The translations under genes were made by a program, and so were the position numbers. A model generated the notes under the pieces. It saw only the letters and a program-made list of their open reading frames with translations. It made no database searches and was not told the origin of the DNA. This document shows positions 3,320 to 26,975 of a stretch of 30,072 bases of DNA, one piece after another (the first letter of the stretch is position 1; each line of letters starts with the position of its first letter). Source of the stretch: Pseudobdellovibrionaceae bacterium. GTDB lineage: Bacteria; Bdellovibrionota; Bdellovibrionia; Bdellovibrionales; Bdellovibrionaceae. The stretch is from contig JBGGMM010000113.1 of assembly GCA_041288045.1 (NCBI GenBank), positions 1 to 30,072 of the forward strand, in the 5' to 3' direction.

Positions 3320-3485
3320 AAACTGACTCCTTTTCAAACTGACCTAAGTCTAGCCGAAAGTGGGGCAATAATGTCCAGAAGAAGTTCATTTTCATCAGTT
3401 TATTCGCATAGTTAGAGCATTTACTCTTAGAGCACTTATTCTAAATTGAGTGAGGAATACCTAAAGCCTTGCCTGCCGCCAACGA

Positions 3486-7219: not shown

Positions 7220-7359
7220 GATGTCCTCCTTTTCTTCTAGCCTGAAGTACAAATCCATCTTGAGCATCACGCAAGCTGATCCCTGACAAAGAAAAGGCAA
7301 ATTTCCCCTTTGCTCTGAAGGAAAAATTCGAGAGCTGCCATTCCACTGCGGACCTGGAG

Positions 7360-7375
7360 TGGCATATGACTTGCT
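7360..7375 (+). promoter_or_regulatory. Sigma54 (-24/-12) promoter
   Basis: TGGCATATGACTTGCT has GG-N10-GC with TGGCA and TTGC, 33 nt upstream of ATG 7409. Confidence 0.8.
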
Positions 7376-7408
7376 CCTCTTTCATTTCGAAAAAGAAAGG
7401 AAGGGATT

Positions 7409-7873
7409 ATGTACACTGACAGTTTTACTCAACCCGACGGCGAAGTGAAATCCTATGGATCTATCATTCGCGAGCTGGGAATGAGTGCGAAGGATTTAAT
7501 CCAAAGTGAAATCAGCTTGATGACAGCCGAATTAAAACATGTGGCTCAGGATGTAGGACGTCACTCAGCTCAAGCAGCCGCTTTCGGCGCTCTTTTAGCT
7601 CTGAGTGTTTTTCCCTTCTTGGCATTTGTTGTGATCGGCCTTGGCGATCTTCTGGATGGGCGATATTGGCTGAGCTCATTGATTGTGGCCGTGATTTGCG
7701 CCGCTGTCGGGGGACCCTTGGCCTACCGGGCCTTTCGAAAGATCAAAGAAAACGACATCAAATTCACGCATTCAAAAGCCAAGCTTCAAAGAGGCTTGGA
7801 AGCCTTTTCAGGAAAAATAGACCAAGTCAAAGATGCAGCGAGAGGAGACCGCTATGGACAACAACATCACTAA
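7409..7873 (+). CDS. YqjE-like / 'phage holin family' two-TM membrane protein
   Basis: SIIRELG..DLIQSEISLMTAELK amphipathic N-terminus, two TM helices (..LGDLLDGRYWLSSLIVAVI..), basic tail. Confidence 0.75.
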   Translation: MYTDSFTQPDGEVKSYGSIIRELGMSAKDLIQSEISLMTAELKHVAQDVGRHSAQAAAFGALLALSVFPFLAFVVIGLGDLLDGRYWLSSLIVAVICAAVGGPLAYRAFRKIKENDIKFTHSKAKLQRGLEAFSGKIDQVKDAARGDRYGQQHH

Positions 7874-8321
7874 TCCTAAAATTGACAATGCGATTTTTCG
7901 TGCCGAGCAGGCAGTGGAAAATAGCATCAACAAATTTGAAGCCGCCATGGAGCACCTTGCTGAAAAAGCGGAGATGACTTCACAAAAGCTTCAGCATGTC
8001 CGCGATGTGGGCCGAAGATCTAAAGATCAATTGGTTCATTTGAAAGACGAGGTCACCAGCACCTTTGAACCGGTGATGCCTTACGTGAGCCGAGCTCGCT
8101 CTGTGTCTCGTTCAGCTGTTGGCGAAGTTAGAAGAAACTCAAGACCTCTGTTTGTCAGCGCTTTGGGTCTTTTGGGTGGCTATCTGATCTATCGCTACTT
8201 TCTGAAAGAAAGATCCTCGGGAGTTTGGCTGAGCAATCAATATTCTGCCGCAGCAAACAATGCCTTTTCTTCTTCGGGTCAATCCGCTGACCAGTTTTCG
8301 AATCTTTCTTATCCCAGATAA
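7854..8321 (+). CDS. ElaB/YqjD/DUF883-like tail-anchored helical protein
   Basis: AGGAG before ATG 7854, overlapping the upstream stop; long helical region followed by EVRRNSRPLFVSALGLLGGYLIYRYF near the C-terminus. Confidence 0.6.
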   Translation: MDNNITNPKIDNAIFRAEQAVENSINKFEAAMEHLAEKAEMTSQKLQHVRDVGRRSKDQLVHLKDEVTSTFEPVMPYVSRARSVSRSAVGEVRRNSRPLFVSALGLLGGYLIYRYFLKERSSGVWLSNQYSAAANNAFSSSGQSADQFSNLSYPR

Positions 8322-8325
8322 ATAA

Positions 8326-9927
8326 TTATGAGTGGGCCTCAGCCAGGGGCCCACTTAATAGATCCCAGCCGAATTTTTCAAGTTTCGCATCGCCTATTCC
8401 ATGAATGCCCTTCAGGGTCTCAAGGCTTTGTGGGTTCTCAAAAGCCAAATGCTTCAATGTCTGATCACTGAAAATAACAAAAGCAGGAACATCCAGTTCC
8501 ATGGCCTTTTCTTTTCGCCACAGACGGAGATTTTGAAAACGCTTTTCAGCCCAGACATCCAAAACAATTTCTTTCTGCCCCGATTTGGGCCGGCGCTTGA
8601 CTGAAGCTGGGGCTTTCGTGCTTGCCTCCTGAGCTGTCCACATGGGTTGAGGGATCGTGACTTTTCGCTGGGAAGTGGGTGCACAATTATCACAATGGCC
8701 ACAGCTTTGAATTCTCTGAGAGTCTTTATAATAAGTGAGAATCTCGGCATGTCGGCATTCACTGCCTTCCGAGTAATTCACCAAAGCTTCCAAATTTCTC
8801 CAACGAAGGTCTTTGATGGCCTTCAAAGCTTGAGAACTTTGAATAAAGTAGGACTGCAGTCCTTTGTCTTTCTTTGAATAGAGCATCAGACATGTGGAGT
8901 CTTTGCCATCGCGTCCCGCTCTTCCCATTTCTTGATAGAGGGAATCAATATTGGCTGGCATTTGAAAATGCACGACCAAGCGAACATCGGGCTGATCGAT
9001 TCCCATTCCGAAAGCATTGGTCGCAACCAAAATTCGAAGTCCCCCCTGGATATAGGCCTCTTGCACCTGCGTTCGTTCTTTGCTGCTCATGCCGGCATGG
9101 TAAAATCCGACCTTGGCAAATCTTTCTTGCAAATGGGCAGTGAGATCCTCTGTGATTTTTCGAGTTCCACAATAAATCAGAACCCGCCCCTCAGGATGCT
9201 GCCTGAGTCCCTGAAGTAAAAATGTCATTTTCGCTTCATCATCCGCACAGGCTTCCACTTGGTAATACAAATTGGGACGATAAAAACCATGCACCATTCG
9301 CGCTGGATTTCGAAGTTTCAAATTTTTTGCAATGTCATTCAAAACTGTTGGAGTGGCCGAAGCTGTCAAAGCCAAGACAGGAACATCAGGCCGGAGTGTT
9401 TTTAAAACATGCAAAGCTGCGTACTCGGAGCGAAAATCGTGTCCCCACTGAGAAATACAATGAGCTTCATCGATGGCAAATAGCGCAATTTGACGATTTC
9501 GAATCCAAGCTTGAAATCCTTCTTTTTGCACTCGCTCAGGTGAAAGATAAAGAAGGTAGGGACCCTTTTCATTCATTTCAGAAAAAATTTTTCTTTTTTC
9601 GCTCTCTGGCTGGCCTGAATGCAAGCAGCCGGCCGCGATCCCCTGACGCTTGAGGGAACTCACTTGATCACGCATCAAAGCAATCAATGGCGAAACCACG
9701 ACGACCAATTGTTGAGATGAAATGGCCGGGAATTGATAACAAAGGGATTTACCACCGCCAGTCGGCAAAACGGCCAAAACGTCCTTCTTATCTAAAACAG
9801 CTGAGATGATTTCCCTTTGTCCAACACGAAACTGCAAAAGGCGAAAGCTCGATTGCAAAAGGCTTTCAAGGGATTCTGAATGGCTTGGCATACAAGGAGT
9901 GTTGTGCAATTGATGTTCCAAGGTCAA
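8326..9927 (-). CDS. recQ: RecQ-family ATP-dependent DNA helicase with HRDC domain
   Basis: LPTGGGKSLCYQ, SPLIALMRDQV, IDEAHCISQWGHDFR, ALTASAT, ATNAFGMGID, QEMGRAGRDG, zinc site CRH..CGHCDNC, HRDC (LRLWRKEKA..VPAFVIFSD..IHGIG). Start could be ATG 9891. Confidence 0.93.
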   Translation of the reverse strand: MTLEHQLHNTPCMPSHSESLESLLQSSFRLLQFRVGQREIISAVLDKKDVLAVLPTGGGKSLCYQFPAISSQQLVVVVSPLIALMRDQVSSLKRQGIAAGCLHSGQPESEKRKIFSEMNEKGPYLLYLSPERVQKEGFQAWIRNRQIALFAIDEAHCISQWGHDFRSEYAALHVLKTLRPDVPVLALTASATPTVLNDIAKNLKLRNPARMVHGFYRPNLYYQVEACADDEAKMTFLLQGLRQHPEGRVLIYCGTRKITEDLTAHLQERFAKVGFYHAGMSSKERTQVQEAYIQGGLRILVATNAFGMGIDQPDVRLVVHFQMPANIDSLYQEMGRAGRDGKDSTCLMLYSKKDKGLQSYFIQSSQALKAIKDLRWRNLEALVNYSEGSECRHAEILTYYKDSQRIQSCGHCDNCAPTSQRKVTIPQPMWTAQEASTKAPASVKRRPKSGQKEIVLDVWAEKRFQNLRLWRKEKAMELDVPAFVIFSDQTLKHLAFENPQSLETLKGIHGIGDAKLEKFGWDLLSGPLAEAHS

Positions 9928-9952
9928 TCTTCATTTTAATGAAAAATAACAC

Positions 9953-10705
9953 TCACTGTCCGACTTTTTCATTGGAGTTTTCTTCCCACTCCCATTCAAT
10001 GACTTCTCGTTGGCGAAACCGCCTCTTGTTCAGAAGAAAGTAAGCAGCCCCCCAAAGCACACCAAAAACAAAGCCAATGGCGTGACTGCGATAACTGACT
10101 TGCGGATCAAAGGCCTCAGCTGGGAAAAAGAGAACAAGACCGACGCCCAAAGCTCGAAGCCAGCGCTGACCCCAGCTTTGTCGTCGGTCCAAAAAAAGAT
10201 ACAAAGAGAGCCAAGCTCCACCCATCCAAAAAACCACACCGGAAGCGCCAATCAAAGAAACCTCAGCAGGCATGGCAGAAATTGCAACTAAATTGATCAA
10301 TCCTCCAAAAACAAAGGCAATGAGAGGGAACACGAGGGAACCAAAATAAGCATTGAGAAAATATCCCAGAATAAAAAACAAAAATGAGTTGGAGAGAAGG
10401 TGTTTAAAATCGGCATGCAGAAAAAGCGCACTCCAAAGCCGGTACCATTCTTGGGATTGAAAAACTTTTTCTCCGCTCACTCGAAAAAGCAACTGCCACT
10501 GCGGAAATTGCTCAAATGCCAGCAGACCGGGAAGAGCCAGTATCAACAGCGACAGAAGAGTCAGATTCAAAGCTGAAGACGCTGGTCTTTGGCTGAGCCA
10601 GGTTTGCCGAACCAAAGCCTGAGGCTTGAATTTTGGAAGCTCCGAAGTCAATGGCCCGATGGGACCTCCTTGCATAGAATCTGAGCTTGCTTCGCTCTTT
10701 GTCAA
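9953..10705 (-). CDS. Rhomboid family intramembrane serine protease
   Basis: WYRLWSALFLHAD..HLLSN, catalytic GASG, VSYRSHAIG; several TM helices. Start uncertain (10705 or 10675). Confidence 0.9.
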   Translation of the reverse strand: MTKSEASSDSMQGGPIGPLTSELPKFKPQALVRQTWLSQRPASSALNLTLLSLLILALPGLLAFEQFPQWQLLFRVSGEKVFQSQEWYRLWSALFLHADFKHLLSNSFLFFILGYFLNAYFGSLVFPLIAFVFGGLINLVAISAMPAEVSLIGASGVVFWMGGAWLSLYLFLDRRQSWGQRWLRALGVGLVLFFPAEAFDPQVSYRSHAIGFVFGVLWGAAYFLLNKRRFRQREVIEWEWEENSNEKVGQ

Positions 10706-10756
10706 GACTCAGCCAAAATGATTGTCGGAACCCTTCAAATGAACTCTAATGGGCGC

Positions 10757-11029
10757 ATGGATCTGAAACACCAGACTGAAAACCACCCTCCTGTTCTTGT
10801 CCCTGTGGAGGCCCTGAGTGCCGAGACTCTTCAGGCTTTGATTGAATCCTTTATCCTTCGTGAGGGAACAGATTATGGTCGCCAGGAAGTCGAGCATCAA
10901 ACCAAACTGGAGCAGATCAAAAGACAAATGGACAAAGGCCAAGTCAAAATCGTTTTTGACCCCAATTCGGAATCAGTGACTTTGATGACCGACCGAGATT
11001 GGAAAAGGCTTTCAACAAATCAAAACTGA
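10757..11029 (+). CDS. yheU: YheU/UPF0270 family protein
   Basis: VPVEALSAETLQALIESFILREGTDYG..L..K..QI..Q...G..KIVFD..SESV is the YheU signature. Confidence 0.85.
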   Translation: MDLKHQTENHPPVLVPVEALSAETLQALIESFILREGTDYGRQEVEHQTKLEQIKRQMDKGQVKIVFDPNSESVTLMTDRDWKRLSTNQN

Positions 11030-11039
11030 AAAAATAAAT

Positions 11040-11753
11040 TTATCGCTGATTTCGAGAGGCCAGCTCTCGTTGAGATTCGGCGAGATTGCTTCGCTGCTCA
11101 TTTTGCACATTCTCCCAGATTCTCTGGCTCACAGGACCTGGCAAAAGAGATTCGATTGGACCCAATGAAGAAGGCGCAATCGATGTTGCATGATAAAGAA
11201 TTTCGCCTTTGATCCCGGCTAAAATTTCACGCAGCTCTTGAGGAAGCTTGTCATTTTCGACCTGAGGGTCTTGAATCAATTGTTTGCTCACTTCAAGAGC
11301 TGTTTTTTGATCCCCGCTTTGAAGAGCCTCCATCAAAAAATCCAAAGCGGCATTTTCGCTGGTTTCGTACTGAGGATCCTGCATCAGGTGGACATTTCGC
11401 AAAGTCTCGCCCAGAGAGCGCAAAAATTCGGAGTTTTTCAAAAGCGATTTTTTCTTTTCCTGCTCAGCGGCTGTGGGAAAAGGCTTGGCTTTGATGATTT
11501 GAAGCTCTCTCAATTCAGCTTGCAAACTGGGATTGAGTCTTTCTTTTTTCACTTGAGCAGAAGTTGTTGGAACTGGAGTGAGCACCTCTGAAGACTTCTC
11601 TTCCTGTTTTTCTTCAGATTTTTTTTCCGATTTTTTTTCAGAAGAAGCCGTCGAGTTGATAGAAACGGAACTTGGGTCCTTTTTGAAAAGGACCCAAGCC
11701 GTTGCGACTAGTAATAAACCAGTCATTGGAATAATCAAAGACTTCTTCAACAT
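11040..11753 (-). CDS. Hypothetical N-terminally anchored alpha-helical protein, coupled to the Hint protein
   Basis: Its ATG overlaps the upstream TGA (TGATG); one TM helix, an SEKK/SEEK repeat linker, then a helical domain. Confidence 0.8.
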   Translation of the reverse strand: MLKKSLIIPMTGLLLVATAWVLFKKDPSSVSINSTASSEKKSEKKSEEKQEEKSSEVLTPVPTTSAQVKKERLNPSLQAELRELQIIKAKPFPTAAEQEKKKSLLKNSEFLRSLGETLRNVHLMQDPQYETSENAALDFLMEALQSGDQKTALEVSKQLIQDPQVENDKLPQELREILAGIKGEILYHATSIAPSSLGPIESLLPGPVSQRIWENVQNEQRSNLAESQRELASRNQR

Positions 11754-14509: not shown

Positions 14510-14654
14510 GGAACCAACTCCTTGGTTGATTCTAGTTTGAAGCTCAAATTGGAAAATAGAAAAGGATTCCAATGAATTGCGCCATCTTGGCTGACCACGA
14601 AAAAGGCAAAAAAGAAAAGATTTAAAAAAGCGTCAAGGATTTCGTCAAAAAATG

Positions 14655-14689
14655 AAAAAGCCGTGATCACAATGAATCAACGGCTTTTT
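14655..14689. terminator. Intrinsic terminator, potentially bidirectional
   Basis: AAAAAGCCGT ... ACGGCTTTTT inverted repeat about 30 nt downstream of the 14719 stop; it separates the signalling cluster from the Hint gene. Confidence 0.75.
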
Positions 14690-14718
14690 ATGAGATATCA
14701 AATCAGTTCAATCGTCGA

Positions 14719-15018
14719 TTAGTGAAGATTGGGATTGGTTTCGTAATCTGAACCTTCCAATTTGACGAGTTTATTGTAAATTCCCATCAACATGAAACTT
14801 GGAACCCAAAGACCCACGAAATTGGCCAGACTTTTTCGCTCTGTGAAAAGAGCCAGTCCTGCTGAAATCGCCATGCTACCGACTGCCAAACCTAAATATC
14901 CAAGCGAAGGAACTTTGGCAGTGACATTTTCAATTTTCTTTGTGACTTCACCCTCAGTTGCATGAGGGGTCGTTGCATTTGCACTGCTGCTCGTTCCGTA
15001 TGAAGCTGTTTTTTCCAT
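14719..15018 (-). CDS. Small two-TM membrane protein of unknown function
   Basis: GGAGG before ATG 15018; 99 aa; EGEVTKKIE..TAKVPS..YLGLAVGSM..ANFVGLWVPSFMLMGIYNKLVK looks like a genuine conserved small membrane protein. Confidence 0.8.
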   Translation of the reverse strand: MEKTASYGTSSSANATTPHATEGEVTKKIENVTAKVPSLGYLGLAVGSMAISAGLALFTERKSLANFVGLWVPSFMLMGIYNKLVKLEGSDYETNPNLH

Positions 15019-15042
15019 AAGACCTCCTGTTGACTCAACATT

Positions 15043-15058
15043 TGCAACGCAAATGCCA
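15043..15058 (-). promoter_or_regulatory. Sigma54 (-24/-12) promoter
   Basis: Minus strand TGGCATTTGCGTTGCA (GG-N10-GC), 24 nt upstream of ATG 15018. Confidence 0.8.
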
Positions 15059-15150
15059 CTGCTCTTTATCTGTTGTTTGCAATTGCTATCCTTCAGAAGT
15101 GGCAGATTTCCCATTTCTGAGTAATGACAGACCCAAACAGCCAGATTCTT

Positions 15151-15420
15151 TTAGGGCGTAGGAGCCAATTTTGAACTCGAATCTGAGACCCGATCCACAA
15201 AATGGGGTTGACCCGACATGCGAGCACAACTGGCACAACAAAAAAACTGGCCAGCCTCTTCGAGTCCATGACCTAAAATCCTCACTCCACAGTGATAGCA
15301 CTTTGGCGCTAAAGCGTGAACGGCACACTCAAAGCAGTCAAAGTTTTTTTCTTGACCATCCATCGTGATAGTCATCATCTTATCGTATTGGTTTCCACAA
15401 ACATCACAAACACCAATCAT
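15151..15420 (-). CDS. Small Cys-rich metal-binding protein (prokaryotic metallothionein-like / TRASH-like)
   Basis: CDVCGN.YDK..FDCFECAVHALAPKCYHCG.RILGHG.E....FCCASCA; AAGGAG upstream. Confidence 0.8.
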   Translation of the reverse strand: MIGVCDVCGNQYDKMMTITMDGQEKNFDCFECAVHALAPKCYHCGVRILGHGLEEAGQFFCCASCARMSGQPHFVDRVSDSSSKLAPTP

Positions 15421-15456
15421 CAGGCACTCTCCTTTCCGTCATTTTGCTTTTGATTC

Positions 15457-15472
15457 AGCAACCTTGATGCCA
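15457..15472 (-). promoter_or_regulatory. Sigma54 (-24/-12) promoter
   Basis: Minus strand TGGCATCAAGGTTGCT (GG-N10-GC) inside the 58-nt gap, 36 nt upstream of ATG 15420. Confidence 0.8.
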
Positions 15473-15478
15473 GCCGAT

Positions 15479-16672
15479 TCAAGCCGAAGGTTGCGCTTCG
15501 ACACTGCTGTCTGGAATTTTCTCTAAAAGAACTGTTAAGACAAAAGTAGATCCCTGACCAGGGGCTGTGGCTTTGAGTAACAAATCCCCCTTCAGTGCCC
15601 GCGCCAGTTGTTGTGCAATCACCAGCCCAAGACCTGTTCCCCCATACTGCCGCTTGGTCGAAGCATCTGCTTGCGTGAAAGGCTGAAACAAGGACTCTGC
15701 CTGCTCGGGAGTCATGCCAATGCCAGTATCTGTCACGGTGATCGTCAATCGATCAAAATTCTCGTTCTCATGAGTGAGATCAAGCGCCCGAGTTTCCATT
15801 TCAACTCGCACTTCACCTTGATTCGTAAACTTAATGGCATTGCCAATCACATTGATCAGGATTTGCTTCAGACGAACCGGATCACAGAGATAACTTTGTT
15901 GCATTGAATTCTTGAAAACAGAAGAGAGCTGAATCTTTTTTTCTTCCGCTCTCTTTTGCAAAATTGAAATCACGTCCTGAATAAGCTCTTGAAGATTGAA
16001 TTTTACCTTTTCAAGAACGAGTCTTTGAGCTTCAATTTTAGAAAAATCCAAAATATCGTCAATGATTCTTAAAAGCAGATGACCATTCCGGCGAATAGCT
16101 TCGCCAAATTGCTCGCGTTCCGAATCTGATATATCACTTTGAGAAATCAGATCGGCAAAACCCATCACTGCGCCCAAAGGGGTTCTGATTTCGTGGCTCA
16201 TATTCGCCAAGAATCGGCTTTTTGCCAAATTGGCGGCATCAGCCTCAATACGCAGCCGATTCATTTGTTCCAATTGCTGCTTCAATTTTTTATTCTGTTG
16301 ATCAATTTGCACAAAAGCTTTGACCTTGCTTCGAACCACATGCGGATCCAAGGGCTTAAATAAAAGGTCCACAGCACCCGTTTCATAGCCTTCAAAAATA
16401 AAAGACTGCTCTTGCAGGTGGGCTGTCACAAACATAATTGGCAGACCACGGAATCTTTTCACTCCGCGAATCAGCCGCGCCAGTTCAAAGCCACTGACGA
16501 TCGGCATTTGTACATCCAAAACGGCCAGCGCAAAATCATGATTCATCAAAAGATTCAATGCGCGATCCGCATCCTGCGCCGAGATCACCTCAATCTCGTC
16601 GCTCTCAATCAAGCGTGTGAGAGCTTTGATATTCTCTGGTTGATCATCAACCACGAGGATGTTGGTCTTCAT
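15479..16672 (-). CDS. Cytoplasmic hybrid kinase, REC-HisKA-HATPase
   Basis: ILVVDD..LDVQMP..FVTA..KP receiver; [14 protein letters not shown]-box; [32 protein letters not shown]. Confidence 0.93.
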
Positions 16673-17246
16673 AAGCTCCTTTTCTCTGCATCAACCGATT
16701 GAGAAATGCTGAAATCTCGGCAAGATCTAAAATCAAGTCTGGTTGAAAGATCTTAATTGCCGATGATGGCATCATTGACAACTCTGCCGTTTGCGGCGAC
16801 TGGACGATGGTTATTCCTCCTCTTTTTTTGATTTCAAACAAACCGAGTGCCCCATCTTCGTTGGCGCCAGTCAAAAGGACTCCAGTGAGAGCTTTGGCAA
16901 AAACAGAAGCTGCTGATTCGAAAAAAACATCAATCGAAGGTCTTGAAAAATGCACGGGTTCGTCCACTGAAAGCGCAAAACAGGAGTCTTTTTCAAGTAG
17001 GACATGATAACCCGGAGGACAAAGGTACACTCCGCCTTTTTCAAGAGGCATTTTATCCTCAATTTCACGCACTTTGAGCGAAGTGTATCTCTGGATACCC
17101 ATTCCATGGGGACCATTCGACCTTGCCGAAAGGTGCTGAACCATGACGATAGGGATTTGAAAGTCGCCTCGCAAACTGGAAAGAATTTTTTGAAAAGCCG
17201 AAATTCCACCTGCCGATGCGCCAATGGCAATCATTTTAATTTGCAT
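16647..17246 (-). CDS. cheB: Stand-alone CheB methylesterase catalytic domain, no receiver
   Basis: IGASAGG (Ser), VQH (His), [25 protein letters not shown] (Asp). Start reassigned to ATG 17246, overlapping the cheR stop. Confidence 0.9.
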
Positions 17247-18087
17247 GAAGACCTTCCTTTCCCCATGCAAGATTTTCTTTCTGAAAAATTTTATGTTTCG
17301 GATCAAAGACCCGATAACTTCGGTGCAGGGAAGAAAAGCGAGTCGTCTCTTTGCTGCCAAGAACAAGAAAACCATGATAGACCAAAGAATCATGAAAAAG
17401 CCGCAGAACCCGATCCTCTAAAGTGCGATTGAAATAGATCAAAACGTTTCGACAGAGAATCAAGTGCATTTCGCGAAAGACGTGATCGGTCGCCAGGTTG
17501 TGTTCTTCGAAAAGAATGTTTTCCTTGAGTTCGTTCTGAAAATGTCCAAATCCCTTTTTCACTGTGTAATAATCCGAAGGGCTCTGAGTCCCGCCAGAGG
17601 CGGTGTAATTGTGAACATAGCTTTGAAAAGTTGAAAGCGAATACCGGCCTTCTCGGGCCATTTCGAGAGCCCGTGGATTGATGTCAGTCGCAAAAATATT
17701 GGAGCGGCTGTAAAGCCCTTCTTCTAGCAGAATGATCGCTAAACTATAAACCTCTTCACCTGTGCTACAACCGGCAACCCAGATATTCAACCGAGGATAG
17801 GTCTTTAAAATTGGAACGAGGCTTTCCCGAATGGTTTTAAAGACCAAGGGATCGCGAAAGAGCTCTGTGGTTGAAATTGTCAAAAAAGGCAGAATTTTTT
17901 CAAATAGCTCGGGATCGTTGTACACTTTTTTTAAAAAATCGAAGCCGTCTTGAAATTCGAACTTTTTAAAAATGTTCTGCAGTCTTCGACTAAATGAGGA
18001 TTCTGCATACTTACGAAAATCATATCCATATTTCAGAAAGATTCCCTCTAAAATCAGTTTTTGCTCGAGAGAATCAACCGAGCTCAT
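17236..18087 (-). CDS. cheR: CheR-type protein-glutamate O-methyltransferase
   Basis: GYDFRKY, TELFRDP, IWVAGCSTGEEVYSLAI, ATDIN, LILCRNVLIYF, GFLVLGSKE. Confidence 0.93.
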   Translation of the reverse strand: MSSVDSLEQKLILEGIFLKYGYDFRKYAESSFSRRLQNIFKKFEFQDGFDFLKKVYNDPELFEKILPFLTISTTELFRDPLVFKTIRESLVPILKTYPRLNIWVAGCSTGEEVYSLAIILLEEGLYSRSNIFATDINPRALEMAREGRYSLSTFQSYVHNYTASGGTQSPSDYYTVKKGFGHFQNELKENILFEEHNLATDHVFREMHLILCRNVLIYFNRTLEDRVLRLFHDSLVYHGFLVLGSKETTRFSSLHRSYRVFDPKHKIFQKENLAWGKEGLHAN

Positions 18088-21000
18088 CTGTGCATCCTCT
18101 CAGACGAGAGCCACACTTTCAAAACAGATCGCAGATTGGCCAATTGAATGGGCTTTGGCAGATAATCGTTCGCTCCCGCTTCAAGACATTTGGCTTTGCT
18201 TTCAGGAGCTGTCTTGGCAGTTAAAGCAATAATTGGCAGGCGACTGAACTGCTTATGAGCCCGCACTCGACGGATGGCCTCAAAGCCATCCATTTTGGGC
18301 ATCATCAAATCCATCAGAACGATTTCAATATCATCATCTTCTTCGAGCATTTGCAGGGCCTCAAAACCATTGCGGGCAATCCGCACGTTCAAGCCCCAGG
18401 CCTCCAAAGCGTGCGCAAGAGCAAAAACGTTTCTCAAATCATCATCCACCAGGAGCACGGTTTTTCCTTCGATTTCAGAGCCTTCCCAAAAGCTTTCTTC
18501 GGGGATTTGATTCTTATCGAAAGAATTGATATTGGCTTTTTGATTGAGAAACAGATGAACTTCGTCAACCAACCGCTCCGGTGAGCGAGCCCCTTTGATA
18601 ATGATACTTTCAGAAAAACGGCGAAGCGTTTCTTCTTCTTGCTCGGTGATTTCCCTTCCTGTGTAAATCACAATCGGCGGAAGCTGGACCGCTTGAGTCC
18701 TTAAACGCTCAAGAACATCAAATCCTGAGACATCGGGAAGCTCCAAATCCAAAATGATGCAGTCGTAGTTCGCGCTTTGTATCATCTGAAGGGCTTCTCC
18801 TCCATTGGTGGCAGTCGAAACCTCGAGATTGCGTCCAGAGATCAACTGAACAATGGCATCTTTTTGCCTTTCGTTATCCTCAACCACTAAAATCTTGCGA
18901 ACTTCAGGTTGCCAAATTTCTTTCAAATGATGAAAAGCCGAGCGAATCTCGGAACCCTTCAATGGTTTTTTCAATCGACCCAAAACTTCCAGACCTTCAA
19001 CGCCGAGAGCCTCTGAATCTCCGGAAATGATTTGAATCGGAATGGATTTGAGATTTTCACTCAGCTTGAGGTTTTGCATGAGCTGTTTTCCACCAAGCCC
19101 TGGAAGATCCAAATCCAGGAAAATTCCCTTTGGCTGATGTTCACGCAATAAATCCAAAGCCATCTCAGCGGACGCAACGCAGATGGGCTGATATCCACCC
19201 TCTTGAGCGATTCGCGAAATCTGACGTTGGATCTGAGGTTCATCTTCGATAATGAGAATGCTCTTCATTTCAGAAGAAAGATCTTTGAGGATCATATCCA
19301 TTTGAGGTCTTGTTTCGGCCGACTCTGCGGACACTGCCGGGCCGAGCGAAGGTTTTTTTTCTTCAGATTTGAGAATTTGCTCAGACAGTTGCATTGGAAT
19401 TTCCAAAGTGAATCGACTGCCTTGACCCACTTCGGTTTGCAAGCTGACATTCCCCCCCAAGAGCGAAGCCAATTCTTTTGAAATTGTCAGTCCCAATCCT
19501 GTTCCACCGTAGCGGCGACTGACAGAGCTGTCCGCTTGCTCGAAAGCTTCAAAGATCAAGTCCTTCTTATTTTCTTCGATTCCAATACCTGAGTCCTGAA
19601 CTGAAAAACGAATCCAGCCTTCTTTTTCTCCGGGCTCAACAATCAGTTGAACTTGTCCTTCTTGAGTGAATTTAAGGGCATTTGAAAGAAAATTTCTCAA
19701 AACCTGCTCCACCCGTTGACGATCCGTATGCATATTGGCTTCGCGAATTTCCTGAGACAGCTGAATTTCGAATTTCAGATTTTTTGATTGAAACTGCAGC
19801 TCAAAGGTTTTTTGCAAATGATCCGCCAGGGATTGAACAGTGAATTTTTCCGGTCGCAAATTGAGTTTTTGGGCATCCATTTTTGAGAGGTCCAAAATAT
19901 CATTGATCAAACTCAAAAGATCATGACCCGCACCATAAATTGACTGAGCGAATTCTTGCTGCTGGGGAGAAAGATTTTTTTCTTTGTTCTCAATGAGGAG
20001 CGAAGTCAGAATCAAGAGACTGTTGAGGGGGGTTCGCAGCTCATGTGACATTTTGGCCAGAAAATCGGATTTATACTGATTGGCCTTGGTCAAATCAAGG
20101 GCCCGCCTTTCGGCGATCCTTTTTGCCAAATCCAGCTCTTCAGTTTTATTTTTTAAGACCTGTTGCTGCTCTTCCAGCAGTCTGGCCTGCTCGGAAAGTT
20201 CGTCATTGCTTGAGCGAAGCTCTTCTTGTTGGGCCTGAAGCTCCTCGGTCTGCTGCTCAAGCTCTTCGTTGTTGGCCCTGAGCTCTTCTTGCTGGCTTTT
20301 GAGCTCTTCGCTTTGCTCTTGAGTTTTTTCCAGCAGGTTTTGCAATCGCTCTCGCCAAAGCGCCGAATTCAAGCCACTGGCAATGATCAATCTCTGTCTT
20401 TCCAAAAGCTTTGATTCTTGCTCTGACAGCTGGCTGAAAAATGCAATTTCCATCACACCGAGTTTTTGCCCTTCAAATTTCAATGGCACGAAGACCAGAA
20501 ATTTCGGGGGCGCTTTGCCAAGTGTCGAAGAGACCATCAGATAGTTTTCAGGAATATCGCTGACCTGCCAAATGTCATCTCGCCGAAAAGCTTCGCCGAT
20601 CAATCCCTCCCCCATTTTCACTTTCCGAGGCGAGGTCAAATTCGAGTGGTCTTCAGCGAAGCTGCTCAAATGGAGAAGCTGAGAATCTTCATGCAGATAA
20701 AGATTGGCGGCGGTCAGCGGAAGGTCAGTCGAAAGTTTTTGCAGGATATGTTGTGAAATTTCTTTTAATGGAAGAGGTTTTGCTAATTCTTGAGCCAGTT
20801 CGGCCACAAGCTTTTGAATTTCGGCTTCTTCTGCCTGCAGTGCCGAGACAGCCTGAGCCCGCCGCTGATTCCTCCAAATCTGAGTCAAAGACCAAGTGAT
20901 AATCAGAATACTGGCGAAAGTTGTGAGGATCAGGGCGATATGAAAATTTCTCTGAGAATTGAAAGCTCTTTCATCGCGAAGGAGCAGCAGCCGTTCTTCT

Positions 21001-21509
21001 TCGGCTTTCAAATTGCTCAATTGATGGCGAAGGTTCTCCATGAGAGCCTGCCCGGTTCGAAATATCGGATGGCCTTCAAATTTTTCGCCTGGATTTGAAG
21101 ACAAAATCAGTTGATGAATTTTTTCAAGTGCCTGCATGCGGGACCGCAGAGCCAGCTCGACCGAGGCCAGCACAGTTTCTTGATTTCCATTGTCTTGGAC
21201 GAGATTCCGAACTTTATATAAATGCTCCCAAGCTTCGACTTGTCCCCGCTGAAACTCCTCGAAAGATGTGGTTTCTCGATTCAAAACAAAGCCGCGGATT
21301 CCAGCTTCGGACTCTTTCACAGAGGAGTAAATTAAATCGATTTCATGAATGACCTGATCGGAATGGCGAATCCAATCTTGATGGGCCCGAACAGTATTAA
21401 AGTTATACCAGAGAAATCCAGCATTGGATAACAAAAGAGCACTTGCTAAAAGCGCATAAGGACTGACACTTAAAAATTTCATTGAGCCACGAATTCGCAT
21501 AAACCTCAT
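18084..21509 (-). CDS. Membrane hybrid sensor kinase: CHASE3-like, GAF, coiled coil, HisKA-HATPase, three REC domains
   Basis: Two TM helices around WIRHSDQVI..ESEAGIRGFVL..EEERLL (CHASE3-like); GEGLIGEA..VPL..GVMEIA (GAF); MSHELRTPLNS; three receivers with Asp (FLDLDLP, ILDLELP, LMDLMMP). Start may be 21500 or 21482. Confidence 0.93.
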   Translation of the reverse strand: MRFMRIRGSMKFLSVSPYALLASALLLSNAGFLWYNFNTVRAHQDWIRHSDQVIHEIDLIYSSVKESEAGIRGFVLNRETTSFEEFQRGQVEAWEHLYKVRNLVQDNGNQETVLASVELALRSRMQALEKIHQLILSSNPGEKFEGHPIFRTGQALMENLRHQLSNLKAEEERLLLLRDERAFNSQRNFHIALILTTFASILIITWSLTQIWRNQRRAQAVSALQAEEAEIQKLVAELAQELAKPLPLKEISQHILQKLSTDLPLTAANLYLHEDSQLLHLSSFAEDHSNLTSPRKVKMGEGLIGEAFRRDDIWQVSDIPENYLMVSSTLGKAPPKFLVFVPLKFEGQKLGVMEIAFFSQLSEQESKLLERQRLIIASGLNSALWRERLQNLLEKTQEQSEELKSQQEELRANNEELEQQTEELQAQQEELRSSNDELSEQARLLEEQQQVLKNKTEELDLAKRIAERRALDLTKANQYKSDFLAKMSHELRTPLNSLLILTSLLIENKEKNLSPQQQEFAQSIYGAGHDLLSLINDILDLSKMDAQKLNLRPEKFTVQSLADHLQKTFELQFQSKNLKFEIQLSQEIREANMHTDRQRVEQVLRNFLSNALKFTQEGQVQLIVEPGEKEGWIRFSVQDSGIGIEENKKDLIFEAFEQADSSVSRRYGGTGLGLTISKELASLLGGNVSLQTEVGQGSRFTLEIPMQLSEQILKSEEKKPSLGPAVSAESAETRPQMDMILKDLSSEMKSILIIEDEPQIQRQISRIAQEGGYQPICVASAEMALDLLREHQPKGIFLDLDLPGLGGKQLMQNLKLSENLKSIPIQIISGDSEALGVEGLEVLGRLKKPLKGSEIRSAFHHLKEIWQPEVRKILVVEDNERQKDAIVQLISGRNLEVSTATNGGEALQMIQSANYDCIILDLELPDVSGFDVLERLRTQAVQLPPIVIYTGREITEQEEETLRRFSESIIIKGARSPERLVDEVHLFLNQKANINSFDKNQIPEESFWEGSEIEGKTVLLVDDDLRNVFALAHALEAWGLNVRIARNGFEALQMLEEDDDIEIVLMDLMMPKMDGFEAIRRVRAHKQFSRLPIIALTAKTAPESKAKCLEAGANDYLPKPIQLANLRSVLKVWLSSERMHR

Positions 21510-21511
21510 GA

Positions 21512-21997
21512 CTAAGAAAGTTCAAGGATTTCATTCAACTCACTTTCAATTCCACGAACAGTCCGCTCCAATTTGGGATCCTTCACAACCGATGAAGCAA
21601 TTCTGAAAAAATGGCTTTCCAATCCTTGAAGCGTAAAATCCTCTTCTTGATCGCGCAAAACAATCACTGGGATTTTTCCGATTTCAATCAGTGAATTTTC
21701 CAGAAGTGGCTCCATATAATTTTCAGCTTCCGTGAGAGCCTGATAGGGATTGAGCTTACTGTCCAAGACAAGCACATCAAAAGAATCATGGGTCATCCGA
21801 CTGAGGGCTTGATAGGGATTTTTCACCACTTCGACTTCGACATCCAGGTGGTGTCGAATGAGCGAAGCCAGCAGCTGTGAAAAATCCCAGTCTTCTTCAA
21901 TCAAGAGAATGCGTTTTTTGCCGAGGTGGAAAAACTCATCCTCTTGAAAATGCGGATGAACTCCATTCATGGTAAATTCTGTGGCCATGAATTCCAA
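21512..21997 (-). CDS. Single-domain atypical response regulator receiver
   Basis: ILLIEED..FDVLVLD..IPVIVL fits a receiver fold, but the conserved Thr/Ser and the KP motif are degenerate. AAGGAG upstream. Confidence 0.7.
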   Translation of the reverse strand: MEFMATEFTMNGVHPHFQEDEFFHLGKKRILLIEEDWDFSQLLASLIRHHLDVEVEVVKNPYQALSRMTHDSFDVLVLDSKLNPYQALTEAENYMEPLLENSLIEIGKIPVIVLRDQEEDFTLQGLESHFFRIASSVVKDPKLERTVRGIESELNEILELS

Positions 21998-22043
21998 ATT
22001 TCATCTCCTTCTTTTCATTTTCTTTTTTCATTTTGACTTCAAA

Positions 22044-22226
22044 TCAAGGCAGACTGCGCGGAGTCTTTCCACCGAGAACGCCGGCCAAAAATGAAATGAC
22101 GGCTAAAGCGAGAAAGGCAATGAGCAAAGTCCGCCCAATGTCCATTGACACTCCAGCAAATCCGGTGGCTCCGAAGATGATGGCAATCAAACCCAAAACG
22201 AAAAACACAATGGCTGCGCGTAGCAT
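22044..22226 (-). CDS. DUF1328/UPF0391 (YtjA-like) small membrane protein
   Basis: MLRAAIVFFVLGLIAIIFGATGFAGVSMDIGRTLLIAFLALAVISFLAG is a typical DUF1328 pattern; 60 aa. Confidence 0.88.
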   Translation of the reverse strand: MLRAAIVFFVLGLIAIIFGATGFAGVSMDIGRTLLIAFLALAVISFLAGVLGGKTPRSLP

Positions 22227-22274
22227 GACGAACCCCTTTCGTGAGAGTTGAGTTCTTGACTTAATCTGCACTCT

Positions 22275-22290
22275 CGCAATTCTTGGGCCA
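22275..22290 (-). promoter_or_regulatory. Sigma54 (-24/-12) promoter heading the DUF1328-REC-kinase-cheR-cheB-kinase run
   Basis: Minus strand TGGCCCAAGAATTGCG (GG-N10-GC), 48 nt upstream of ATG 22226. Confidence 0.75.
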
Positions 22291-22406
22291 GTCTTCAGAT
22301 GCGTAAAAATTCACCATGGCACGTGGCAAAAATGGGAACGGGGCAATAATCATTTTGCTTGGGGAAAATCTCCACTTCCCGTATAACTAGTTCCCAGAGG
22401 TGAAGC

Positions 22407-23798
22407 ATGTCGAAAATTTTGGTGATTGAAGATGATCTCGATGTTCAAGAAATGATTCTCGCTTTCTTCCGCCAGAAGGGTTTCGAAGGTGTTGGCTACG
22501 ACAATCCAGAAACCGCTCTCAAAGATTTCGCTAAAGAGAAATTAAAAGTCGATGTGATCATCACGGATCTCAAGCTTCCCTCGATGTCTGGGATTGACTT
22601 CATTCGCAAATTTAAAGACGGCGGTGTCGACATTCCAATCATTGTTGCGACTTCGAACCGCTCTGTTGAAACTGCCATAGAAGCGATTCAAGTTGGCGCT
22701 TTTGATTTTGTCGTCAAGCCTCTTCACTTTCCCCAGCTTTTGGTTTCAGTTGAAAGAGCGCTGCACTTTTCCAAACTCAAAAATGAAAATCAGACACTGA
22801 AAGCGGCAATTCACACCAAAGAAGGGACCAACCTTCAATCCATCATTGGCAAAAGTCCGAATTTTCTCAAAGCTCTGGACCTCGCAAAGCGTGTGGCCAG
22901 CAGCCATTCCAATGTTTTTATCTGTGGTGAAAGCGGAACTGGAAAAGAAGTGATCGCCAGAACGATTCACAATATCAGCTCACGGGCAAAGATGCCGTTT
23001 CTGGCAATCAACTGCTCGGCTATTCCTGAAAACTTGCTGGAATCCGAACTGTTTGGTTATGCCAAAGGAGCTTTTACTGGGGCCGCCGAAAAGAAAATCG
23101 GTCTGTTTGAAGAAGCCGAGGGTGGCACTTTGTTCCTGGATGAAATCGGCGACATGAATGTGCAGCTCCAGGCGAAGCTTTTGCGGGTTTTGCAAGAGCG
23201 TAAGATCAAGCGAATTGGCGAAAATCAGCTCCGCGATATCGACGTTCGAATCATTTCAGCAACCCATAAAGATCTCAAAAAAGAAATGCAGGAGCATCGA
23301 TTTCGCGAAGATCTTTTCTTTCGATTGAATGTCATTCCAATTTATATTCCACCATTGCGCGAACGGATCGAGGATGTGATTCCTCTGGCAGAATTCTTTT
23401 TAAAGAAATATTCGGCGCTGAATCACGTTCCAATGAAGGGATTTGCCAAACCTGCACTTGAAAAACTTTTGCGCAATTCATGGAAGGGCAATGTTCGTGA
23501 ATTGGAGAACACGATCGAAAGAGCGGTTGTGCTTTCGCAGGGACGGATGATCGAATCAGATGATCTTTTGGATTTCTTCGAAAGCGCCCCCAGCAGCATC
23601 AATTCCGATCAGTTGTTTGACGTGAAATCCCTGAGTGGCGAAGACGTCATGCCAGCGGATCGAATGATGAAGCTTTATATCAAACATGTTCTGGAAAAAA
23701 ACAGCTGGGCCAAAGAAAAAACCGCCAAGGATTTAGAAATCGACCGCAAGACTCTTTATCGAAAACTTCAAGAGATGAGAGCCGAGAACATGATCTAG
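22407..23798 (+). CDS. NtrC/AtoC-family sigma54-dependent response regulator (REC-AAA+-Fis HTH)
   Basis: ITDLKLP receiver; GESGTGKE; ESELFGYAKGAFTGA; LFLDEIG; FREDLFFRLNV; WKGNVRELEN; TAKDLEIDRKTLYRKL. Confidence 0.95.
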   Translation: MSKILVIEDDLDVQEMILAFFRQKGFEGVGYDNPETALKDFAKEKLKVDVIITDLKLPSMSGIDFIRKFKDGGVDIPIIVATSNRSVETAIEAIQVGAFDFVVKPLHFPQLLVSVERALHFSKLKNENQTLKAAIHTKEGTNLQSIIGKSPNFLKALDLAKRVASSHSNVFICGESGTGKEVIARTIHNISSRAKMPFLAINCSAIPENLLESELFGYAKGAFTGAAEKKIGLFEEAEGGTLFLDEIGDMNVQLQAKLLRVLQERKIKRIGENQLRDIDVRIISATHKDLKKEMQEHRFREDLFFRLNVIPIYIPPLRERIEDVIPLAEFFLKKYSALNHVPMKGFAKPALEKLLRNSWKGNVRELENTIERAVVLSQGRMIESDDLLDFFESAPSSINSDQLFDVKSLSGEDVMPADRMMKLYIKHVLEKNSWAKEKTAKDLEIDRKTLYRKLQEMRAENMI

Positions 23799-23830
23799 GT
23801 CATGTTCGCTCTGAATTGAAAGGAAAAAAG

Positions 23831-24151
23831 ATGGATCTTGATTTCATCGATCACGAGGCCAAAGAAAGATACACTTCCCGTCGCCAGATGGATCTGCTTC
23901 GCTGCCGTGAGTGCATGAAGCGAAATGACCTTTCCGAAATTGAAACGATCGGCCACAATTTGAAAGGCAATGGCATTTCCTTTGGCTTTCCAGAACTCTC
24001 TCGACTGGGTGAAGAAATGGAAAATTCGGCTAAAAATTCCGATCATTCCCAAGTGCAAAAATTAATCGATCGATTTGAAGAGTGGCTTTCTGAGCATTTA
24101 AATACTCAGAAAGCCCCTCAGGTCAGACCAAACGATCTTTCGCTGAATTGA
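23831..24151 (+). CDS. Hpt (histidine phosphotransfer) domain protein
   Basis: IGHNLKGNGISFGFPELSRLGEEME matches HxLKGxxxxxG; 106 aa, helical. Confidence 0.85.
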   Translation: MDLDFIDHEAKERYTSRRQMDLLRCRECMKRNDLSEIETIGHNLKGNGISFGFPELSRLGEEMENSAKNSDHSQVQKLIDRFEEWLSEHLNTQKAPQVRPNDLSLN

Positions 24152-24386
24152 CATCCGTGCGAGAATCTTCTGGATTTTTGTTCAACTGATTCTGCATCTG
24201 GACATCGGGATTGCGCCAGTTTGGATCGGCTTCGTCATAGCGTCTGGGTTCATCGGCTTTGCGATCCTCATTATTGGCCAGATCGTCTGATTTTCCTGGC
24301 TGTCCCTGGTTGGGAGTGACAGGCTTTGGATTTTGATTCTGCTGATTTTGATTGGGCTTTTGCCCGGGTTGTTGTTCTTGGGGCAT
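24123..24386 (-). CDS. Small hydrophilic Q/N/P/D-rich disordered protein
   Basis: AAGGAGG before ATG 24386, 13 nt after the upstream stop; almost no hydrophobic core. Confidence 0.7.
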   Translation of the reverse strand: MPQEQQPGQKPNQNQQNQNPKPVTPNQGQPGKSDDLANNEDRKADEPRRYDEADPNWRNPDVQMQNQLNKNPEDSRTDVNSAKDRLV

Positions 24387-24399
24387 TGGAACCTCCTTG

Positions 24400-24966
24400 T
24401 TATTTCAGTTTAATGAAAACCATTGCTGAAGAGTTTCGTGATGAATCGTCCACTGCCGCCAAACGATTTTTGACAGTGGAGTCTTGTGTATTTAAAAAAT
24501 TGGCAAAGGCATTCGGTTTTTCAGCCATATTGTGAACATTAACATCCGCATTTGGCTCCATGCGATCAATGTATTTTTCAATATTCTCACCGCGCTCTTC
24601 CGCCAGTTCAATTTGCTCTGTCGAAAGTTTTGCGCCTTCGGCTTTCGGCAAAGCTTGATCCGACCAGACGGCCACGTCAACGGCTGCAACCTCTCCCTGT
24701 TTTTTAGCCGCCATCAGAGCTTTGTTGATTTCAGCTGTTGCTTCAGGGCTGAGTCCCTTTCTTCCGGGTTCAAATGCAATAGTGGAAACAATGTTGCGAT
24801 CCAAAGCCATCGCGGCCTGCTCGCTGGAAGATGGAGCGATTGCTCCAGGCGCTTGGACTTGAGCTTGATCCTTGGGAATCACTTCCGTTTTATTGCCACT
24901 GGTGGAACAGGCAGAAAGAAAACAAGCGAATAGAAAATAGATCAGTTGAAATTTCATCTTAAACAT
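24400..24966 (-). CDS. Lipoprotein with a divergent OmpA-C-like domain
   Basis: AAGGAGG upstream; lipobox LSA-C; IAFEPGRKGLS..VAVWSD..IELAEERGENIEKYI parallels OmpA-C (FxxxsxxL, GHTD, LSxxRA). Confidence 0.7.
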   Translation of the reverse strand: MFKMKFQLIYFLFACFLSACSTSGNKTEVIPKDQAQVQAPGAIAPSSSEQAAMALDRNIVSTIAFEPGRKGLSPEATAEINKALMAAKKQGEVAAVDVAVWSDQALPKAEGAKLSTEQIELAEERGENIEKYIDRMEPNADVNVHNMAEKPNAFANFLNTQDSTVKNRLAAVDDSSRNSSAMVFIKLK

Positions 24967-24996
24967 ACCAAGGCCTCCTTCATTCCATTTTTAAAT

Positions 24997-25012
24997 GGCA
25001 AAGAGAGTGCCA
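24997..25012 (-). promoter_or_regulatory. Sigma54 (-24/-12) promoter
   Basis: Minus strand TGGCACTCTCTTTGCC is a full TGGCAC-N5-TTGC consensus, 30 nt upstream of ATG 24966. Confidence 0.85.
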
Positions 25013-25148
25013 TCCTGAAGTCAAATCCATCCAACCCTCAGCACTTCGCAAGCGGGGTAAATTGCCCGTTGCGCCTCAACAAGCAAGATGGACATTTCAA
25101 AACCTTTGCGCTAGTTCTGAGGACCTTCCAAGAACTGAGGTCGAATCC

Positions 25149-26929: not shown

Positions 26930-26975
26930 AGTTGAATTGTTTAGCGAGCCTCTAAAAAAGGCAAGTTGATTGTCG

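Follow-up and report, generated by a model that had tools for sequence, protein, structure and literature searches.

We analysed a stretch of 30,072 nucleotides (the window) from a Pseudobdellovibrionaceae bacterium of the phylum Bdellovibrionota (assembly GCA_041288045.1, contig JBGGMM010000113.1), which is contig C113 of a metagenome-assembled genome (MAG; G000) that is 83% complete and 2.89 Mb long. The window carries a gene for an NtrC-family sigma-54 activator, the genes of a putative phosphorelay, and five exact -24/-12 motifs in front of genes for small membrane and envelope proteins and one Cys-rich protein. A sequence-only reading had proposed that these motifs place a general-stress-type gene set under sigma-54 control through the local activator. 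Our results indicate that one regulon likely unites four of these motifs as sigma-54 promoters, each with a palindrome upstream as the predicted activator site. In what follows, G, C and L numbers denote genomes, contigs of the source genome and locus stretches, respectively. The features under discussion are:

7294..7308, no strand: predicted palindromic activator site, score 12.7, centre 59 bp upstream of the -24 element
7360..7374, plus: sigma-54 -24/-12 motif of the yqjE-like operon, exact pattern
7409..7873, plus: YqjE-like membrane protein (PF07332, Pfam 1.7e-17), two transmembrane peaks
7854..8321, plus: conserved partner gene, coiled-coil-like product, comes after yqjE homologues in relatives
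14719..15018, minus: small membrane protein, 99 amino acids, no named family, 67-68% identical in two relatives
15044..15058, minus: sigma-54 -24/-12 motif of the small membrane protein gene, kept in 2/2 relatives with the gene at the locus
15099..15113, no strand: predicted palindromic activator site, score 13.4, centre at -48
15151..15420, minus: Cys-rich protein, 89 amino acids (9 Cys, 4 His), automatic name prokaryotic metallothionein
15458..15472, minus: -24/-12 motif before the Cys-rich gene, doubtful regulon member (no palindrome, unconserved)
15479..16672, minus: REC-HisKA-HATPase hybrid kinase of an inserted cassette (Pfam), 54% identical to the C245 copy
16647..17246, minus: CheB-type methylesterase lacking REC (PF01339), start inferred
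17236..18087, minus: CheR-type methyltransferase (PF01739) in an RsbM-like position
18084..21509, minus: CHASE3-GAF-coiled helix-HisKA-HATPase-3xREC hybrid kinase (Pfam), RsbK/CfcA-like layout, 44% identical to the C245 copy
21512..21997, minus: single-domain receiver, second gene of the DUF1328 operon (Pfam; relatives)
22044..22226, minus: DUF1328 (YtjA-like) membrane protein, 60 amino acids (PF07043), 93% identical in three relatives
22276..22290, minus: sigma-54 -24/-12 motif of the DUF1328-REC operon, present in G006, G002, G007, G005 and G012
22340..22375, no strand: tandem predicted activator sites 21 bp apart, scores 6.1 and 16.0
22407..23798, plus: NtrC-family sigma-54 activator (REC, Sigma54_activat, HTH_8), GAFTGA, recognition helix DRKTLY
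23831..24151, plus: stand-alone Hpt protein (PF01627)
24123..24386, minus: hydrophilic protein, 87 amino acids, GRAVY (mean hydropathy) -2.06, 53-74% identical stretches in relatives
24400..24966, minus: OmpA-like lipoprotein, homologue of Bd2243/Bd2244 by sequence comparison
24998..25012, minus: sigma-54 -24/-12 motif of the lipoprotein operon, kept in 5/5 same-genus orthologues
25054..25068, no strand: predicted palindromic activator site, score 10.8, centre at -49

An exact-pattern scan for TGGC-N7-TTGC recovered the five motifs as first described, all intergenic and in the orientation of the downstream gene. They do lie just before start codons, but the gaps measured 34, 25, 37, 49 and 31 nt in the order listed, a range of 25-49 nt rather than the 24-48 nt given earlier. 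Two more exact matches, at 12154(+) and 19814-19828(-), fell within long open reading frames (ORFs); the window total of seven compares with 1.99 +/- 1.46 in shuffled sequence, where one of 100 shuffles reached seven. The sequence-only reading had also called for a genome-wide enrichment test, and this favoured the correct spacer: 45 of 194 N7 sites stood outside long ORFs and 8-160 nt ahead of a same-strand start, while the identical criterion returned 6/183, 8/188, 10/233 and 5/218 for the wrong spacers N5, N6, N8 and N9. The enrichment was thus 4.5-9-fold, and with 5-10 gene-preceding sites in the controls about 37 of the 45 should be real. Such sites were concentrated in the window (5 against 0.42 expected from the remaining genome, Poisson p=8e-5). 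Most of the others sit before genes for secreted or envelope proteins, FliL, an RpoE-like sigma factor and similar products. Because the motifs precede many other genes and the source genome encodes about 11-12 sigma-54 activators, this common motif alone does not define a regulon. A search of the 100 nt ahead of each of the five motifs gave no IHF consensus, nor did one turn up in the interval from activator site to promoter, and a scan for sigma-70 promoters and terminators gave chance-level results only. The GG-N10-GC element was enriched and, as predicted, conserved before orthologues for four of the window motifs; the prediction failed for 15458-15472, which is absent in 3/3 relatives.

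What is new here is a palindrome, phased on one helical face, upstream of four of the five promoters. De novo motif discovery in 26 promoters, all from relatives, identified G[GT]GG[AC]AAWTT[GT]CC[CA]C with a log-likelihood of 95.5 (23-25 in three shuffles). The position weight matrix derived from it was trained without the source genome, and position was left out of the training. A score such as the 12.7 of the yqjE-like promoter was reached by about 0.5% of background upstream windows. At the DUF1328 promoter the tandem pair consists of a half-site at 22340-22354 (-57; 6.1) and a full site at 22361-22375 (-78; 16.0), a layout that is the same in G006, G002, G001, G003 and G005. Across the source genome, seven of 47 strict promoters scored at least 10, against 2% of background (p=5e-5). 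Four of the seven are the window promoters of YqjE, DUF1328, the small membrane protein and the lipoprotein; the others belong to a second DUF1328 (with its divergent partner), to YmgE and to a beta-barrel gene, at whose position G006 has CsbD. Relaxing the promoter criterion brought in a paralogous activator, a hemerythrin protein and a few more. The earlier treatment of the five promoters as one set therefore stands for the four that have the palindrome in common and falls for 15458-15472, which is neither conserved nor preceded by one.

The distance from site to -24 element clustered at about 46, 57, 68, 78 and 88 bp. This helical phasing was pronounced in relatives (n=34, R=0.65 at 10.5 bp; 0 of 100,000 permutations; R=0.03 for low-score controls), in a hand-collapsed list of 28 (R=0.70) and in a held-out set from later loci (n=18, R=0.68, p=1.4e-4; one promoter in common with the first set), with the limit, which counts against the regulon, that the related genomes behind these statistics are not independent.

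The activator encoded at 22407-23798 has an AAA+ domain, the GAFTGA loop and a DNA-binding helix-turn-helix. Its counterparts in relatives are 84-88% identical, and three activators of the source genome (on C113, C245 and C189) have an identical recognition helix. The helix IDRKTLY was invariant in 20 aligned rows, which had been chosen by that motif. Among 151 genomes of the phylum, 45 have a strong activator match and 37 of these also encode DUF1328, in 23 cases within 6 kb and across eight families. An AAA+ tree, which took in 29 of 33 activators (the four without an anchor motif were left out), grouped those of Bdellovibrionota with a support of 93/93, below the tool's bar. No solved structure has a DRKTLY helix; that of ZraR is nearest. 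We hold with high confidence that the DRKTLY activator family exerts sigma-54 control over the four promoters. The assignment to the local activator is thus supported as to family but not unique, because three activators carry the same helix, which also makes cross-talk likely.

The strongest site in the genome, the full site of the tandem pair, lies 32 bp ahead of the activator start, where it overlaps the sigma-70-like promoter predicted for that gene (-10 at 22382-22387). The overlap and its conservation in five relatives suggest autorepression. The C189 activator (L109:3786-5303) has a site of its own at -45 and a weak -24/-12 motif, which suggests a regulatory cascade. A paralogous module on C245 (L110:705-10443), found also in G006 and G002, comprises an activator, Hpt, CHASE3 kinase, CheR, CheB and REC kinase, together with a divergent DUF1328-REC pair and small proteins; it has half-sites only.

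The phosphorelay next to the activator was a further element of the sequence-only reading, and one part of it is conserved. Of 45 activator loci, 31 have Hpt within 6 kb (0/4 receiver-less loci), and it can be regarded as the conserved partner of the activator, but the CHASE3-CheR-CheB cassette is a local insertion: the cassette and its REC kinase are absent in the three same-genus relatives whose locus covers the position. The combination of CHASE3-GAF kinase, CheR, CheB and REC kinase occurs in the window and at the paralogous C245-type locus, while other activator loci have CHASE hybrids (G009, G036, G066) or PAS kinases (G006, G007). We therefore rejected the CHASE3 cassette as a fixed cognate sensor. 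The window CHASE3 kinase has a Glu/Gln-rich helix ahead of the H-box, and no HAMP domain was detected in it by Pfam. Gene order makes phosphotransfer from kinase to Hpt to receiver likely.

Taken together, these elements outline a mechanism. A hybrid sensor kinase, from the CHASE3/CheR/CheB cassette in the window and of CHASE or PAS type elsewhere, would phosphorylate the conserved Hpt, which would pass the phosphate to the receiver aspartate of the activator. Bound at the palindrome on the correct helical face, the activator would open the sigma-54 complex by ATP hydrolysis. The DUF1328-REC operon likely includes the sensor cassette, which would give positive feedback, while the site over the activator's predicted promoter would allow autorepression, and the three same-helix paralogues likely bring different signals to common sites. 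The output would be small stress-type membrane and envelope proteins, which likely shield the cell from osmotic or envelope shock when prey is exhausted and left. We judge it probable that the DRKTLY activator, predicted palindrome binding, phosphorelay and small-protein output do form one mechanism with a stress-protective role.

The nature of the target genes bears on that role. Pfam confirmed the YqjE-like and DUF1328 labels (PF07332, PF07043). YqjE-family homologues in other genomes had a -24/-12 motif scoring at least 10 in six of eight cases, three of the six also with the palindrome. The ElaB/YqjD label once given to 7854..8321 was not confirmed, as neither this protein nor five homologues matched DUF883 (C-terminal glycine zipper). 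The metallothionein-like label of the Cys-rich protein agrees with automatic cluster names but has no Pfam match. The 99-residue membrane protein falls in unnamed clusters of Bdellovibrionota and Planctomycetota, and the window lipoprotein is 24-30% identical to OmpA-like lipoproteins of relatives. Clusters around the activator contain CsbD, DUF883, DUF1328, YqjE, YmgE, YflT-like, DUF2383, ferritin-like, hemerythrin, OmpA-like and beta-barrel genes, of which the stress-marker families CsbD, DUF883, DUF1328, YmgE and YqjE were found by Pfam. These small-protein families are targets of RpoS or SigB elsewhere.

The architecture had been described as distinct from RpoS, SigB and PhyR systems, with a check for rpoS proposed, and our searches agree: RpoS was found in 0/60 family genomes and 0/151 phylum genomes, and SigB and PhyR above cut-off in 0/5 genomes each (EcfG itself was not searched for). 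These searches gave no dedicated sigma-70-family stress sigma factor. It is likely that Bdellovibrionota, in which RpoS was not found, turn on a survival gene set by an ATP-driven activator instead. Overall, what the sequence-only reading called a sigma-54 stress regulon is supported in part, as sigma-54-type control of stress-type genes by an activator family, with four corrections needed.

Several observations weigh against a single stress regulon of this kind. rpoN was not found in the source MAG, at 83% completeness; it is present in 4/5 same-genus genomes. Phasing within the source genome alone was not significant (n=13, R=0.38). At 15458-15472 the palindrome score is 6.2 with no half-site, and in 3/3 relatives the Cys-rich gene directly follows the receiver gene, as the third gene of a DUF1328-REC-MT arrangement, with no motif of its own and with the CHASE3 cassette absent. 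The Dps, DUF6496, PEBP and Usp genes have a -24/-12 motif and neither site nor half-site (for Dps, no site within 124 bp of upstream sequence). Of 30 DUF1328 loci across the phylum, only 12 have the -24/-12 motif and four of those the site, and within the genus Bdellovibrio 0/7 DUF1328 loci have either. The pair Bd2243/Bd2244 has no motif or site upstream of identical proteins (best scores 6.1 and 6.2), levels in starved cells fit a lasting starvation response less well than a pulse (below), and outside the phylum the same helix and site precede a different kind of gene. The candidate rule that all sigma-54 stress genes bear the palindrome was rejected on the Dps, DUF6496, PEBP, Usp and Cys-rich genes; with the first four lacking a site, the site-bearing regulon is small (about 8-14 promoters). 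No promoter was called for the trehalose phosphatase gene. Likewise, the idea that Bd2243/44 bear the motifs was rejected for the locus examined.

The cultured genus offers expression data. The locus is complete in some Bdellovibrio strains (activator WP_015091232.1 or WP_063206939.1), where sites precede OmpA-like lipoproteins and YmgE, and Hpt and a CHASE kinase are close by. In G175 (L168:12299-13686) the full-length activator is split in two frames, by assembly error or decay. A receiver-less paralogue in the genus adjoins DJ-1/PfpI and a DUF883 gene, the latter with motif and site in 6/7 loci; at L308:4593-7137 this activator is in an operon with DJ-1/PfpI that converges on the DUF883 operon, an arrangement conserved in the genus. 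By accession, name and length, the proteins of this locus are Bd1521-Bd1524 of B. bacteriovorus. Bd1522 (CAE79402) has the DRKTLY helix, no receiver domain and no Hpt at its locus; Bd1524 is the DUF883 protein, and an identical protein has the motif and a palindrome at -68. Bd2243 and Bd2244 are 32-35% identical to the window lipoprotein. In a published time-course proteome of B. bacteriovorus (PMC12546842), Bd1524, Bd2243 and Bd2244 make up three of the eight proteins of cluster 18 in the sheet 'PeakAfterExit', and Bd1524 is up 2.0 log2 at 6 h (false discovery rate 1e-6). This co-induction of predicted targets at prey exit supports a common programme.

The same data also fit the strongest alternative, in which the wiring is right and the job developmental or envelope-specific: the system would be switched on a single time in each predation cycle, as prey is exhausted and left, to reshape the envelope of the progeny, and would not respond to unrelated stresses. 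Between T3-4h and T6-7h the three proteins gain 2.4-2.8 log2, and starved attack-phase cells 24 h old contain less of them than cells at exit (PMC12546842), a pattern that suits a transient shock or a developmental pulse more than a lasting starvation response. Most targets are membrane proteins, lipoproteins or beta-barrels, and in Desulfuromonadales-like loci a DegP-type protease is preceded by the same helix and site. However, the same clusters contain the cytoplasmic markers CsbD, hemerythrin, DUF2383, ferritin-like and DJ-1/PfpI, sensors at some loci are CHASE3/RsbK-like, and PMC3627812 has Bd1521-Bd1524 barely expressed, nearly silent, in attack- and growth-phase RNA. We consider a purely developmental or envelope-specific role unlikely.

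A second alternative keeps the sigma-54 promoters and assigns the palindrome to another activator, either a paralogue (C245/C189) or a flagellar FlbD-like protein, leaving the window activator a mere neighbour. The shared helix of the three paralogues and the number of activators in the genome speak for it, as do the related motifs of FlbD (GGCA-N5-TGCC) and DVU1063 (GGCA-N4-TGCC) in PMC3333781. The palindrome here has N3 spacing, however, and the fliL promoter scores only 6.4; the strongest genomic site is conserved directly ahead of the window activator, and genomes with a single member of the family still have sites beside it. This makes another activator quite improbable. A third reading, with the motifs as fortuitous matches or relics and transcription from promoters of the sigma-70 family (such as RpoE, RpoH or FliA), is scarcely credible given the enrichment over spacer controls, the conservation across families and the independent phasing, even with rpoN not found in the MAG, DUF1328 and the Bd2243/44-type pair motif-less in the genus Bdellovibrio, and one strain's activator split.

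Returning to the stress-protective regulon, its broadest form would be a general stress response of Bdellovibrionota in which no stress sigma factor takes part. The master switch would be a sigma-54 activator family of ancestral origin that spans the phylum, with the DRKTLY helix reading the phased palindrome and swappable CHASE3, CHASE or PAS kinases feeding in through one Hpt, and it would fire as progeny exhaust and leave their prey. We put this forward as a real but tentative possibility. If true, it would add a fourth architecture to those of RpoS, SigB and EcfG, and B. bacteriovorus would offer a receiver-less remnant in which to test it (Bd1522, Bd1524); it addresses the question of how phyla without these factors mount a broad stress response. 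With an activator family, its predicted binding site, a rule for the spacing and a list of targets in place, along with locus tags in a species that can be cultured and manipulated genetically, the question is directly testable. The finding may also account for unassigned proteins that peak at prey exit, and how well Bdellovibrio survives away from prey is relevant to its use as a living antibiotic.

The range of the site outside Bdellovibrionota was assessed with a metagenome DNA scan and a Geopsychrobacteraceae genome. The DNA-only scan returned 87 loci, most of them chance (37 within ORFs), but in eight (two identical) the gene for a DRKTLY-helix activator immediately precedes one site or a tandem pair at -68 to -70. 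The Geopsychrobacteraceae genome has the same layout, and these loci support the pairing of helix and site. In the Desulfuromonadales-like loci the genes behind helix and site do not encode small stress proteins but a receiver and a DegP-type protease; the module (L304:277-2404; L264:1093-4526) consists of a HAMP kinase, activator, tandem sites, receiver and protease. The palindrome by itself is thus no mark of general stress genes. Activators of the Desulfuromonadales-like and Geopsychrobacteraceae loci branch apart in the AAA+ tree. Other metagenome matches, in unrelated DNA, place site and motif before an HSP20 gene (L288:1323-1754) and a Usp gene (L227:2614-3552). Genome-wide exact-pattern scans for site plus promoter proved too strict (6/61 genomes) or too noisy and were not used as evidence; in 121 genomes of the phylum of G225 the exact pattern gave two matches, and the element is rare there.

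The sigma-54 promoter, NtrC-type activator, Hpt relay and CHASE3 kinase are each already known. The RpoS, SigB and EcfG (PhyR-NepR) regulons resemble the present system in the marker families DUF1328/YtjA, CsbD, DUF883/ElaB-YqjD, YqjE, YmgE, YflT-like and DUF2383, whereas the regulon here has -24/-12 promoters and an activator site and is apparently smaller. Its output works like the small-protein core of those regulons, and membership fails on the sigma factor. Vibrio LuxN/LuxQ-LuxU-LuxO combines hybrid kinases, a stand-alone Hpt and a REC-type sigma-54 activator, and the relay proposed here would be similar. The window activator, however, scores 358.7 against the LuxO model cut-off of 800, below equivalog level, and its predicted targets are protein genes rather than Qrr RNAs.

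On the sensor side, RsbK-RsbM-RsbY of Bacillus cereus, RsfS of M. smegmatis, CfcA of P. putida and KipF of S. melonis have the same CHASE3-GAF-helix-kinase-receiver layout with an adjoining CheR-type methyltransferase (PMC4574943, PMC10950880, PMC6849547). RsbK with the methyltransferase RsbM controls SigB (PMC4574943), CHASE3 kinases feed SigB and SigF stress systems (PMC4574943, PMC10950880), and for RsfS, CfcA and KipF there is a link to salt or respiratory stress (PMC10950880). The window sensor differs in having three receivers, a CheB and a second REC kinase, and its cassette is not fixed at the locus. Its output would be Hpt and a sigma-54 activator, not PP2C phosphatase partner switching or a diguanylate cyclase; there is no PP2C, and hence no RsbY-type REC-PP2C, among 30 window proteins (PP2C was not searched genome-wide), and SigB was not found.

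DVU3305 of Desulfovibrio vulgaris is a sigma-54 response regulator labelled 'general stress response' (PMC3333781, PMC4641369). Its regulon is small and local, comprising Usp-domain genes, a Lon-fused regulator and kdp, and the small-protein markers are unnamed in the accessible parts of these papers; the supplements of PMC4641369 gave no match to four motif halves. FlbD-type motifs have the GGCA/TGCC core of our palindrome with other spacing (PMC3333781). Among uncharacterised genes of B. bacteriovorus, Bd1522-Bd1524 have the helix and, at the DUF883 gene, the motif and site, but lack the receiver and Hpt of the window; for these genes and for Bd2243-Bd2244, expression values alone have been published. 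We found no description of the regulon or motif in the literature covered (subscription papers, figures and one scanned supplement of PMC12546842 lay outside its scope). In the portions available, PMC12316311 makes no mention of Bdellovibrio, CsbD or DUF1328, and PMC3162934 none of Bdellovibrio.

Other genes of the window are described here for completeness. A 960-residue frame at 455-3337(-) fuses malate synthase A and isocitrate lyase, both parts scoring above NCBIfam cut-offs; the two are fused also in G016, split in G002 and G004, and were not found in G006 and G009. Just upstream of this glyoxylate-cycle gene, at 3362-3376, lies an activator-site match (12.5) without a convincing -24/-12 motif. 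A 939-residue lipoprotein-like protein at 11753-14572(-) has two PKD domains and Cys-rich repeats and is 53-56% identical in three relatives; by eye, its C-terminus resembles a Hint domain. The region 26207-30069(-) is a conserved run of adenylate-cyclase-like (by eye, no Pfam match), double cNMP-binding and PilZ proteins. At 3486-3914(-), a stand-alone FliG C-terminal-domain protein adjoins a pirin gene.

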